Origin: Candidatus Staskawiczbacteria bacterium
Lineage (GTDB): Bacteria > Patescibacteriota > Minisyncoccia > Minisyncoccales > Staskawiczbacteraceae
DNA length: 52,776 bases
Reading direction: 5' to 3'
Assembly (NCBI GenBank): GCA_943357015.1
Contig: CALRFZ010000001.1
Location: 1-52,776 of the forward strand
Part shown: in pieces, positions 47,998 through 50,165 of the stretch
How the letters are laid out: each line of letters opens with the position of its first letter
Numbering within the stretch: position 1 is the first letter of the stretch
The notes under the pieces: model-generated
Seen by the model: only the letters and a program-made list of their open reading frames with translations
Database searches by the model: none
Told to the model about the DNA's origin: nothing
Program-made: the position numbers and the translations under genes

Positions 47998-48051
47998 GCA
48001 GTCATAGCCAAAAGGCAATAGAATAAAGTATTGTTTTCTGGCTGTGACTGC
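47998..48051 (+). promoter_or_regulatory. 5'-leader hairpin of DGR target gene 1
   Basis: gcagtcatagcca (47998-48010) pairs with tggctgtgactgc (48039-48051), a 13-bp stem with one G-U. The homologous hairpin precedes target gene 2. Confidence 0.45.
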
Positions 48052-48104
48052 CAATTTGGTATGTCAAGCAAGAGATTGGCGAAAACCCAAAAGGAGAAAA
48101 CGCC

Positions 48105-48752
48105 ATGAGTATCCAGACTCAGACCAACAAGTTCACGGCCACGATTCTGCAGAATCTCCCGGAAGTTCCGGAAGACATCATGCAGAATTGGATCGAGAAC
48201 CCCAAGGCGCTCCAAAAGCTCCTTTCGGGTCTCGTTCCTCCGGTCAACGGTTCTGCCACCGAGTTCAAGATCTGGAAGACCCTGAAGCTCCGTACGGGCA
48301 TCGATGCCGATGGCTATCGCAAAACCATCAAAGGCAAGAAGGTGGGTAGCAAGAAGATGGACATCGGCGACTACGCCAACGACATCCTCGGCAAACCCGC
48401 GTTCGCCGTCGTCACGGAAGAAACCGAACTCGATCTCGTCGTGGTCAGTGTCGCCGAACTTGGTTTCAAGAACGGAGCCAAGCTGAAGGACATCTACGAT
48501 CGGGCCAAGGAGAAGGGTCTCCAGCTTTGCCCGAACCAGGTTGGTCCTGAACTGCGCTTGCAGTACGAAGACCAACCCAACGGTGAGTGGCTCGTGATCG
48601 GCATGGAGCCGATTACCGACTCGGACGGCGGTCTCTACGTGTTCTACGTCGAACACAATGTCAGCGATCTGTGGCTCAGCACGCACTATGACTACCCGGG
48701 CCTCCTCTGGTTCAGCAACGATCGCTTCGTGTTCGTTCTCCCGCGCAAGTGA
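48105..48752 (+). CDS. DGR target protein 1 (C-terminal variable region); family unassigned
   Basis: 215-aa ORF with an AAGGAG RBS 8 nt upstream. It is GC-rich with GC3-biased codons. The last 46 codons are VR1. About 55-60% identical by eye to the next gene. No signal peptide or TM segment. Confidence 0.85.
   Translation: MSIQTQTNKFTATILQNLPEVPEDIMQNWIENPKALQKLLSGLVPPVNGSATEFKIWKTLKLRTGIDADGYRKTIKGKKVGSKKMDIGDYANDILGKPAFAVVTEETELDLVVVSVAELGFKNGAKLKDIYDRAKEKGLQLCPNQVGPELRLQYEDQPNGEWLVIGMEPITDSDGGLYVFYVEHNVSDLWLSTHYDYPGLLWFSNDRFVFVLPRK
48612..48748 (+). repeat. DGR variable region VR1
   Basis: 137 bp collinear with TR 50029-50165. I count 15 mismatches by hand, all at TR adenines (for example AAC to TAC, AGC, CAC, CTC or TTC). 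The 3' A-free tail tcgcttcgtgttcgttctcccgcgc is identical. Confidence 0.9.
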
Positions 48753-48848
48753 TCTTCAAGTTGTCTCTGGTAACTTGGAATCTGTGCTCTCTGTTGAGCA
48801 CTTGGTTTCTTGGAACCATCGCAACAAGCTCTTCTTGCATTTTCCAAA

Positions 48849-48932
48849 GGCCGCGGTCAGTTAACCATACTGATTCGCGGCCCCATTTCAGAGTAATTTA
48901 CCCAAAGTAGATTTTTCTGAAATGGGAAGCTC
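48849..48932 (+). terminator. Two consecutive hairpins downstream of target 1 (attenuator/terminator-like)
   Basis: Hairpin 1 is ggccgcg...cgcggcc (48849-48882), with an inner tcagt/actga pairing. Hairpin 2 is a 10-bp stem, ccatttcaga (48883-48892) with tctgaaatgg (48916-48925), followed by a T-rich tract. Confidence 0.55.
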
Positions 48933-48949
48933 TTTTATTTTTAAAAACT

Positions 48950-48997
48950 AGTCACAGCAATAAGTCCGTAACTTATTATTGATTTATTGCTGTGACT
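48950..48997 (+). promoter_or_regulatory. 5'-leader hairpin of DGR target gene 2
   Basis: Perfect 14-bp stem: agtcacagcaataa (48950-48963) with ttattgctgtgact (48984-48997). The 3' arm (gctgtgact) and the downstream leader (caagca..ggcgaaa.ccc..aagga.aaa.cgccATG) are conserved with target 1. Confidence 0.45.
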
Positions 48998-49050
48998 ACA
49001 TTTCGTGGTCAAGCAAAACTGGCGAAACCCTAACGAAAGGAAAAACCGCC

Positions 49051-49662
49051 ATGTCTCAAGACGCCAAGCTCGTGTCTCGTATCGCCGAGTGCCTTCCTGA
49101 GATGTCCAAGGAGCAGAAACAGGGGTGGATCGAAAACCCCAAACGGCTCCAGCAGGTCCTCCAAGTCTTGGCCGAGATTCCTTCCGACCCTAAGGTCTGG
49201 AAGCGGATCACCATCGGTACGGGACTGAACACCGACGGCCTTCGTCAGGCCATGAAGGACAAGGGCATGCGTATTAGTGACTGGGCCAACGACATCCTCG
49301 GCAAACCCGCCTTCAGCGTGGCTACCGAAAAGATGGATGTGGACCTCGTCGTCGTCAGTGTCGAGGACTTGGGCTTCAAGGACGGAGCTACGCTCAAAGA
49401 CATCTACGCGGCCGCCAAAAAGCGTGGCCTCGAGCTCTGCCCAAACGAAGTCGGTCCCCAACTGCGTCTGCAGTACAAGGATCAGCCGAAAGACGAGTGG
49501 TTGCTTATCGGCATGGAGTCGTTTACCGTCTCGGACGGCGATCTCCGCGTGTTCCACGTCGCGCACGATGGCAGCGTTCTGTGGCTCTACACGTTCTATG
49601 ACTACCCGGACGGCCTCTGGCGCGGCAGCGATCGCTTCGTGTTCGTTCTCCCGCGCAAGTAG
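49051..49662 (+). CDS. DGR target protein 2 (paralog of target 1, C-terminal variable region)
   Basis: Start set at ATG 49051 (MSQDAKL), by homology of the leader and RBS with target 1. The track's 48979 start would run through the leader hairpin. 203 aa. The last 46 codons are VR2. Confidence 0.85.
   Translation: MSQDAKLVSRIAECLPEMSKEQKQGWIENPKRLQQVLQVLAEIPSDPKVWKRITIGTGLNTDGLRQAMKDKGMRISDWANDILGKPAFSVATEKMDVDLVVVSVEDLGFKDGATLKDIYAAAKKRGLELCPNEVGPQLRLQYKDQPKDEWLLIGMESFTVSDGDLRVFHVAHDGSVLWLYTFYDYPDGLWRGSDRFVFVLPRK
49522..49658 (+). repeat. DGR variable region VR2
   Basis: 137 bp collinear with the TR. I count 23 mismatches by hand, all at TR adenines. The A-free 3' tail is identical. Confidence 0.9.
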
Positions 49663-49737
49663 CTTCAGGTTGCTCTTGGTCTCTTGGATCTTCTGCCCTT
49701 TATTGGACATTTGGTTCCTTGAAACTCGGAAACAACA

Positions 49738-49782
49738 AACCCCTCAATGCAAACGGAAATTGCAAAGAGGGGTTCTTTTTTT
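49738..49782 (+). terminator. Intrinsic terminator after target 2
   Basis: aacccctc (49738-49745) pairs with gaggggtt (49767-49774), with an inner tgca/tgca pairing, followed by CTTTTTTT. Confidence 0.75.
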
Positions 49783-50028
49783 AAATCAATATGATAGTAT
49801 ATAAATCGGATAGTAGGCTATTATCAAGTCTGCGGTTACGGCTTCAGGCAGCCGAATTCTATATTTCAGGACTATGCAGAATCAAGGCGGTTACGGCTTC
49901 TTTGAGCGTCATACCTGATTAGTAAAAAATGAAGATACTTGGTGTAAAGCGTTAGGGTATAAAAGATACCGAATCAATTCAGCCCTGAGAGTATTCGAGG
50001 GGTGGTGGCAGGGGGAGACGCTTTATAC

Positions 50029-50165
50029 ATTACCGACTCGGACGGCGATCTCAACGTGTTCAACGTCGAACACAATGACAACGATCTGTGGCTCAACACG
50101 AACTATGACAACCCGGACAACATCTGGAACAGCAACAATCGCTTCGTGTTCGTTCTCCCGCGCAA
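50029..50165 (+). repeat. DGR template repeat (TR)
   Basis: Non-coding copy of the target C-terminus. About 40 adenines by hand count. 11 Asn codons in the VR frame (9 AAC and 2 AAT: ITDSDGDLNVFNVEHNDNDLWLNTNYDNPDNIWNSNNRFVFVLPR). It diverges from the VR flanks immediately after ...cgcgcaa (C versus G). The hairpin ctccgc/gcggag (50178-50198) follows. Confidence 0.9.

Follow-up and report, generated by a model that had tools for sequence, protein, structure and literature searches.

GC-rich target genes beside AT-rich machinery in a diversity-generating retroelement of Candidatus Staskawiczbacteria: a probable conserved property of the target family

Why should the target genes of a retroelement differ in composition both from the genome that carries them and from the machinery that serves them? 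The question is raised by a diversity-generating retroelement (DGR) near one end of a contig from Candidatus Staskawiczbacteria bacterium (assembly GCA_943357015.1, contig CALRFZ010000001.1, positions 1 to 52,776; this whole stretch of 52,776 nt is called the window below). The first-pass annotation, made from the letters of the window, offered two explanations: recent capture of the targets and their template from a high-GC donor, or strong selection on composition, for example against adenine outside the sites intended to mutate. Comparing the locus with its relatives in other genomes, we find it probable that a GC-rich composition of the targets is a conserved trait of this protein family that does not depend on host GC, is restricted to the coding sequence (CDS) and is apparently at a compositional steady state.

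The cassette is a canonical DGR, with two targets, a template repeat (TR), the accessory gene avd and a reverse transcriptase (RT). Its parts, including the variable repeat (VR) of each target, are:

48105..48752, forward strand: target gene 1, 215 aa (open reading frame, composition and at least 621 homologs)
48612..48748, forward strand: VR1, 137 nt (alignment to the TR)
49051..49662, forward strand: target gene 2, 203 aa from the ATG at 49051 (paralog of target gene 1)
49522..49658, forward strand: VR2 (alignment to the TR)
50029..50165, forward strand: TR, 137 nt with 40 adenines (VR/TR alignment)
50201..50530, reverse strand: avd (Pfam bAvd PF22296, E=1.8e-18)
50572..51567, forward strand: DGR RT, from the ATG at 50572 (Pfam RVT_1 PF00078, E=9.3e-26)

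This anatomy had been assumed earlier and is upheld by the RVT_1 and bAvd matches and by VR/TR mismatches that fall exclusively at TR adenines (15 of 15 in VR1 over 137 nt, 23 of 23 in VR2); among 40 VR/TR pairs of relatives, 659 of 715 mismatches do so, which marks the related elements as working DGRs. Remote family copies in the same metagenome-assembled genome were considered as further targets of a TR in cis and rejected, the mismatches not being clean (13 of 24 and 15 of 28 at A). The VRs stop 4 nt short of the target stop codons, the TR translated in the target frame has Asn (AAC) at the variable positions, and a GC-rich 3' segment, CGCTTCGTGTTCGTTCTCCCGCGCAA, is identical in the TR and both VRs. 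The RT has the motifs LGNLTSQ at residue 191 and YADD at residue 223, and is 55-69% identical to RTs adjoining family targets in 30 Patescibacteria-type loci. The two target proteins, 58% identical to each other, have no Pfam domain, and almost all of their homologs are found in metagenome bins of the candidate phyla radiation (CPR); the AF2 model of target 1 (pLDDT 86) retrieves C-type lectin (CLec) carbohydrate-recognition domains as its top PDB matches, at non-significant scores (E=0.07, TM 0.28/0.42). Between this and a second, independent assembly of the locus (L080; related loci are numbered likewise), the only substitutions are at 49624 and 49631, two sites in VR2 opposite TR adenines 50131 and 50138, which hints at ongoing diversification at the population level. 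Some 40-70 nt immediately 5' of the TR (~49960-50028) can still be aligned, weakly and with gaps, to the part of the target ahead of the VR; hence, the TR appears to have been copied long ago from the targets' 3' end, and this would explain why it shares their composition.

The window has an overall GC content of 34.8% (33.5% over bases 1-45400), and its host genes, taken as the 39 non-overlapping open reading frames (ORFs) of at least 100 aa before 45.4 kb, have a mean GC of 0.336 (sd 0.038, maximum 0.458) and a mean GC at third codon positions (GC3) of 0.280 (sd 0.049). Target 1 (GC 0.560, GC3 0.764) and target 2 from its ATG (GC 0.587, GC3 0.779) stand about 6 sd above these genes in GC and about 10 sd in GC3. 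The span 48040-50165 reaches 51.7% GC, while 2126-nt windows within 1-45400 do not exceed 40.2% (mean 33.7, sd 2.4), and the TR region (50002-50165) is 52% GC. By comparison, avd (50201-50530, reverse strand) has 37.0%, the RT (ORF 50455-51567) 36.7%, the neighboring serine recombinase (46414-47733, reverse strand) 40.1% and a transposase-like frame (51667-52776) 40.0%. The GC-rich targets noticed by eye thus lie far outside the host gene distribution, and they are indeed foreign to their own retroelement machinery (0.56-0.59 against about 0.37); likewise, the estimates of about 40% for the RT, avd, recombinase and transposase genes and about one-third for the core genome agree with the computed 36.7-40.1% and 33.6%. 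The description of targets, leaders and TR as GC-rich alike stands for the targets (56.0/58.7%) and the TR (52%) but not for the leaders: the target leaders and intergenic spacers have 36.7% (47734-48104) and 40.9% (48753-49050), values of 47-52% being restricted to the final ~50 nt ahead of each ATG. An assembly chimera is ruled out by the second assembly, which has the same structure, and by 22 related loci with the same split. Two host-region ORFs of intermediate composition, encoding a NUDIX-domain protein (5055-5831, GC 0.458) and a 309-aa product with no Pfam match (15240-16169, GC 0.444), may be other acquired genes.

The same split recurs across the family. We retrieved genomic loci for relatives of the targets, 79 in all, and compared the 72 family genes having usable far flanks with their hosts, which range in GC from 0.27 to 0.65. 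Of the 72 targets, 69 are richer in GC than their host; for 62 the difference is above 5 points, and for 50 it is above 10. Averaged by host class, target GC comes to 0.52, 0.56 and 0.56 at host GC 0.25-0.35, 0.35-0.40 and 0.40-0.45, and to 0.57 and 0.62 at host GC 0.45-0.50 and above 0.50. The regression of target on host GC has a slope of only 0.37, the excess shrinking from +0.19 among the most AT-rich hosts to +0.04 among GC-rich ones. The 22 syntenic loci (target-TR-avd on the reverse strand-RT) have median GC values of 0.583 (target), 0.366 (RT), 0.361 (avd) and 0.426 (host), and in every one the target lies more than 0.05 above the RT. Host GC in these loci predicts that of the RT (slope 0.89, r=0.80) but not that of the target (slope 0.25, not significant). 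Excesses of this size are rare in other genes, being seen at 0.10 or more in 12 of 580 non-target ORFs of AT-rich-host loci (sd 0.041), against a median of +0.146 for targets. Among such rare outliers are IMP dehydrogenase and adenylosuccinate synthetase in one locus (L016, 14671-17699), whose GC surpasses that of their Patescibacteria host by about 15 points.

A recent capture, by horizontal transfer, of the target and TR module from a high-GC donor, with amelioration yet to take place, would suit a module that stands about 20 GC points above host and machinery and shares its island with tRNA genes, a serine recombinase and a frame resembling a transposase; in addition, contigs of GC-rich Verrucomicrobiota and Bryobacterales contain family members that match the host GC. 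However, the contrast in 69/72 relatives and 22/22 syntenic loci is found among family members that are 45-75% identical in protein, and because they are no closer than this, their synonymous sites should have equilibrated long ago. We also polarized singleton substitutions outside the VR in three triplets of close relatives. The ratios of synonymous third-position AT→GC to GC→AT changes were 9:10 (L013/L026/L020), 15:21 (L038/L057/L049) and 19:18 (L009/L018/L071), a balanced flux with no net change from GC to AT, albeit in small samples; in the first triplet, neutral decay toward host GC3 (expected 5.3:1) is rejected (p=0.0013). Moreover, GC-rich genomes yielded no close homolog: every one of the best matches is from Patescibacteria, at 74% identity or less. 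Capture, as put forward by the first-pass annotation, is contradicted by this balanced flux, by the split in 22 of 22 loci and by homologs in sibling AT-rich genomes that are equally GC-rich; these siblings carry DGRs, so the annotation's proviso of relatives with no DGR does not apply. We regard it as exceedingly improbable.

A variant of this explanation dispenses with a single recent event and supposes that target and TR modules from a GC-rich pool are swapped recurrently into AT-rich RT/avd loci, so that none has time to ameliorate. Target GC is independent of host GC, recombinase and transposase genes lie nearby, and the protein distances of RTs and targets correlate weakly (Mantel r=0.22, confounded by paralogy), all of which this would accommodate. 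On the other hand, a GC-rich reservoir is not apparent: GC-rich hosts account for about 6 of the 79 loci, and a phage reservoir is made unlikely by a count of 3 relatives among 2.9 million viral contigs. The close triplets in AT-rich hosts, with their balanced flux, show no decay since arrival, and the TR lies 35 nt from avd across a junction conserved in about 28 loci. Recurrent replacement therefore appears quite unlikely.

In a profile of 43 AT-rich-host loci anchored on the stop codon, the GC excess sets in at the start codon with +0.09, rises to +0.23 in the VR and falls to zero within 60 nt past the stop; there is a small bump at the position of the TR, and the conserved leader is not enriched. 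GC3 is 0.59-0.72 over the entire CDS. A gradient of GC3 spreading out of the VR was considered and discarded: GC3 hardly changes along the gene, and first codon positions account for the gradient in total GC. This profile bears on GC-biased gene conversion, whereby targets, as recombination hot spots, would have their GC3 lifted by GC-biased repair of heteroduplexes. The general shift from AT to GC at synonymous and first codon positions, the climb of the total excess toward the VR end and the frequent presence of targets in multiple copies are all as expected under conversion, and the weak co-divergence of RT and target is compatible with recombination. Yet the excess stops at the CDS edges, although the conserved duplicated unit runs ~100 nt further upstream and ~90 nt downstream; the paralogs of the window, at only 58% identity, have not been homogenized; and GC3 is flat along the gene. 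Further, conversion does not predict folding beyond that of synonymous shuffles (see below), and a rise of 35-50 GC3 points is far above the effect that it is reported to have in bacteria. We consider it an unlikely explanation, though one to be kept in mind.

The form of selection suggested by the first-pass annotation, adenine depletion, is readily seen inside the repeats. The frequency of A at third positions (A3) drops to 0.00-0.02 within the VRs and TR of the window; family-wide, the last two 90-nt bins have values of 0.01 and 0.09. Over the full length of the window targets, A-ending four-fold codons are almost absent. If targets were purged of A so that only the intended sites could be mutated, such figures would follow. 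However, T-ending four-fold codons are also much reduced. A3 and the corresponding frequency of T (T3) are 0.31 and 0.41 in host genes of the window but 0.17 and 0.19 in family targets (T3 0.15-0.17 in the window targets), so that outside the VR both are about halved, C3 gaining most and G3 next, and the target coding strand overall still has A>T. The codons used are mostly C-ending (CTC, ATC, GCC, GGC, TTC, GAC, AAC), while NNA, GGG, CGG, AGR and ATA are avoided. The shift outside VR and TR is a general one from AT to GC and not specific to adenine. Since the RT copies only the TR in the established DGR mechanism (PMC5758913), adenines elsewhere in the gene are not exposed to mutagenesis and there is no known reason to purge them; DGRs of AT-rich phages spare A in VR and TR only. 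Adenine-sparing is thus very unlikely to suffice alone: selection on composition was the better of the two directions originally proposed, but its adenine-depletion form holds only within VR and TR, T3 falling as well.

What, then, could maintain the GC-richness? Ordinary translational optimization is an unlikely answer, as GroEL in one locus (L012) has a host-like GC3 of 0.236, equal to the host median, against 0.60 for the target of the same locus, and SecA, LepA and HPF of the window are AT-rich at third positions (GC3 0.19-0.32). Folding of the nucleic acid offers another lead. Because z-scores of single sequences against dinucleotide shuffles were inconsistent (-4.0 and -0.9), we used a family-wide test against synonymous-codon shuffles, in which the target CDSs have a mean folding z of -2.0 (17 of 18 negative) and size-matched host ORFs one of -0.87 (targets versus hosts, Mann-Whitney p=0.011); the minimum free energy per nt is -0.37 kcal/mol for targets versus -0.24 for host ORFs. 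RT and avd follow the host genome in composition and the targets do not; in the scheme that we propose, a gene-specific force would therefore keep opposing the AT-biased mutation pressure of the host at the synonymous sites of the targets. The leading candidate for this force, favored only tentatively and at well short of even chances, would be selection on the nucleic acid itself for a GC-rich and unusually stably folding CDS, on which a DGR-specific ban on third-position adenine would be superimposed within VR and TR only. More speculatively, and with a rather low probability, the CPR clade of DGRs might need the entire target CDS to be GC-rich and strongly folded, a previously unrecognized requirement in cis. 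It could, for example, serve recognition of, or access to, the target site in mutagenic homing, or alternatively control the stability or translation of the target mRNA together with its conserved structured leader; selection would then hold a host-independent GC set-point of ~56-60% against AT-biased mutation.

Several points weigh against the interpretation of a maintained, folding-related family property. The targets exceed the control host ORFs in folding by a modest margin, the controls having negative values as well, and the nature of the maintaining force is an inference. The comparison with a highly expressed gene uses a single marker (GroEL, n=1), the fetched DNA containing neither ribosomal-protein genes nor one for EF-Tu. 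The substitution test comprises three small triplets, of which one rejects decay while the other two fit both models, and pairs polarized with distant outgroups show an excess of changes from G or C to A or T (143:81), which we treat as a parsimony bias because a pair from GC-rich hosts shows the same bias. The weak co-divergence of RT and target would also permit exchange of modules between elements, although paralogy confounds this correlation. Finally, a few family members are barely above their host in GC (L029, L073).

Comparison with known DGRs helps to place the property. By its host and cellular context, the element is probably a member of the known CPR DGR clade: like the 'clade 2' DGRs of Roux et al. 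2021 (PMC8144416), it belongs to Patescibacteria host lineages and is cellular rather than viral (3 relatives on viral contigs). That paper makes no mention of GC content, GC-rich sequence, nucleotide composition or codon usage. The DGR of Bordetella phage BPP-1 (mtd-avd-TR-brt) resembles the present one in its [I/L]GxxxSQ RT, its Avd, the adenine-specific TR/VR differences, the position of the VR at the target's 3' end and the GC-rich constant segment that closes TR and VR. It differs in its small compositional contrast (mtd 0.659, avd 0.566 and brt 0.613 in a genome of 0.65 GC, as opposed to 0.56-0.59 versus 0.37 here), in that the present element has two targets and an avd convergent with the TR, and in a long spacer that is read through into brt, in place of which a terminator hairpin lies 12 nt past the TR in our element; the target fold modeled here, too, appears only weakly CLec-like. 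Hankyphage, Butyrivibrio phage Arawn and a Helicobacter canis prophage have DGRs with little or no contrast between target and RT. In the crAss-like phages cr56_1 and LMMB (28-32% GC) and in Bacillus phage BalMu-1, as here, an AT-rich genome carries an RT below genome GC, and the VR is more GC-rich than the TR, A being replaced; however, their target bodies are host-like (GC3 0.11-0.38), with GC-richness limited to VR and TR. A general property of DGRs is hence rejected, each of these (BPP-1, Hankyphage, Arawn, the H. canis prophage, the two crAss-like phages and BalMu-1) lacking either a large contrast between target and RT or a GC-rich gene body, and because the DGRs of AT-rich phages lack such a body, the gene-wide trait appears specific to the present target family.

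Departures of DGRs from host composition are themselves on record. Wu et al. 2018 (PMC5758913) found that ~20% of DGRs deviate by at least 5 GC points from the host, which they read as horizontal transfer, and that GC-rich segments flank the mutagenic part of the TR. Our case shares the departure from the host but differs in that the split lies inside the cassette, between targets plus TR and RT plus avd, and in that it is clade-wide and apparently a steady state, to which a reading as horizontal transfer does not fit. In the literature searched, we found no description of a compositional split between target and RT in DGRs, nor any account of the conserved, host-independent and CDS-bounded GC enrichment of the targets.

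The peculiar codon usage has a visible by-product in the form of long ORFs on the opposite strand, which the first-pass annotation had correctly read as a product of GC-ending codons:

47946..48686, reverse strand: shadow ORF antisense to target 1, 246 aa (ORF list; not a gene)
49030-49710, reverse strand: shadow ORF antisense to target 2, 226 aa (ORF list; not a gene)

Both are in phase with the target codons, and the targets lack TTA, CTA and TCA codons. Were these ORFs real overlapping genes, they would constrain the third positions of the sense strand, and their lengths and the fact that an automatic pipeline called one of them as a gene could be taken in that sense: in the public gene call for the second assembly (L080 2926-3606), the antisense ORF is annotated in place of target 2. 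In simulations, however, the antisense frame is open with a probability of ~0.5 under the codon usage of the targets and of ~0 under that of the host, and it is fully open in only 14 of 49 family genes. Codon usage and poor conservation of the frame together lead us to reject overlapping genes as the cause, an idea to which we give next to no credence.

Several further signals surround the targets and the TR:

47919..47946, forward strand: predicted consensus sigma-70-type promoter (TTGACA, 16-nt spacer, TG, TATAAT; 12/12 consensus positions, extended -10)
48001..48050, forward strand: conserved long leader hairpin of target 1, AGTCATAGCC...GGCTGTGACT (alignment of 10 leaders)
48784..48801, forward strand: short GC-rich hairpin 32 nt 3' of the target 1 stop, a candidate hairpin of the kind that follows the initiation of mutagenic homing (IMH) site (pattern scan)
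50178..50198, forward strand: hairpin plus U-run, 12 nt 3' of the TR and convergent with the 3' end of avd
50547..50555, no strand assigned: G9 homopolymer between the divergent avd and RT (G10 in the second assembly, L080)

The target 1 promoter is preceded by a second, degenerate version of its -35 region in direct orientation (47896-47915). In the 10 aligned leaders, the long hairpin has 21 pairs, 9 of them with compensatory changes; an equivalent copy is present in the leader of target 2 (~48949-48998), the hairpin recurs in seven related loci (L001, L005, L007, L012, L023, L024, L043), and it matches no Rfam family. It is adjoined by a short hairpin, closing at the ATG, whose loop presents the Shine-Dalgarno sequence (GGCG/CGCC; in variants, GGTG/CACC or AGCA/TGCT). 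A scan for a post-VR hairpin of the type seen after target 1 detected none 3' of VR2. Downstream of the TR (50166-50200), a conserved motif, AACTCTCTTCATTTCTC, within ~12 nt is followed by the hairpin, the stem of which covaries over the ~28 related loci; from these features, the TR RNA may end ~35 nt 3' of the TR. Upstream of it, a direct repeat, GCGGTTACGGCTTC, was seen by eye at 49832-49845 and 49887-49900, in a region that may belong to the TR transcript. With G10 the avd frame reaches an ATG and encodes 130 aa, while with G9 it is broken and yields 109 aa from a TTG; the locus may be a phase-variable switch, the alternative being an error of assembly.

The cassette lies in an island in the order tRNA-Met, tRNA-Asp, serine recombinase (reverse strand), target 1, target 2, TR, avd (reverse strand), RT and a transposase-like frame that runs off the contig end, of which the flanking features are:

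46014-46088: tRNA-Met (ARAGORN)
46160..46238, forward strand: tRNA-Asp (GTC) (ARAGORN; Rfam tRNA)
46414..47733, reverse strand: large serine recombinase (Pfam Resolvase, Recombinase and Zn_ribbon_recom)
51667..52776, forward strand: transposase/integrase-like open frame of at least 370 aa, off the contig end (six-frame translation; DDE and rve-like motifs by eye)

The tRNA-Asp gene forms the host-side edge of the island and, judging by its position, may be its integration site. Homologs of the recombinase lie directly upstream of family targets in two loci (L005 and L015, 60% identity), with another in L066 (54%), which suggests that some DGR cassettes of the family share one kind of integrative element as a vehicle. 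Just outside the island, between two tRNA-Met genes, an ORF (45624-45977) encodes a four-helix bundle resembling Avd, from the 23S rRNA intervening-sequence protein family (E=9e-28). Host genes of the window, such as SecA, LepA and glycosyltransferases, are 45-64% identical to genes of Patescibacteria loci. The region 28947-36263, with a HARE-HTH/sigma-70 r4 protein, a TrwB/HerA-like ATPase, an RNase H-like protein and their neighbors, is syntenic with the flank of one DGR locus (L009) at 45-64% identity; as judged from these comparisons, conservation of the host-gene neighborhood extends beyond the cassette.

Atypical GC is routinely read as a sign of recent horizontal transfer, DGRs included (PMC5758913). 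If, as is probable, the 20-point discontinuity described here is a stable trait of a family, that inference fails in the present case. DGR targets of this kind may also be under-counted in CPR genomes, because their unusual codon usage misleads gene callers. Holding a GC3 of 0.6-0.8 within genomes of 27-45% GC, beside machinery that tracks the host, these targets offer a clean example from nature in which selection on nucleic-acid composition can be told apart from mutation bias and from biased conversion. Should the force that maintains them prove to be tied to homing, it would represent a new cis-requirement for the DGR mechanism.

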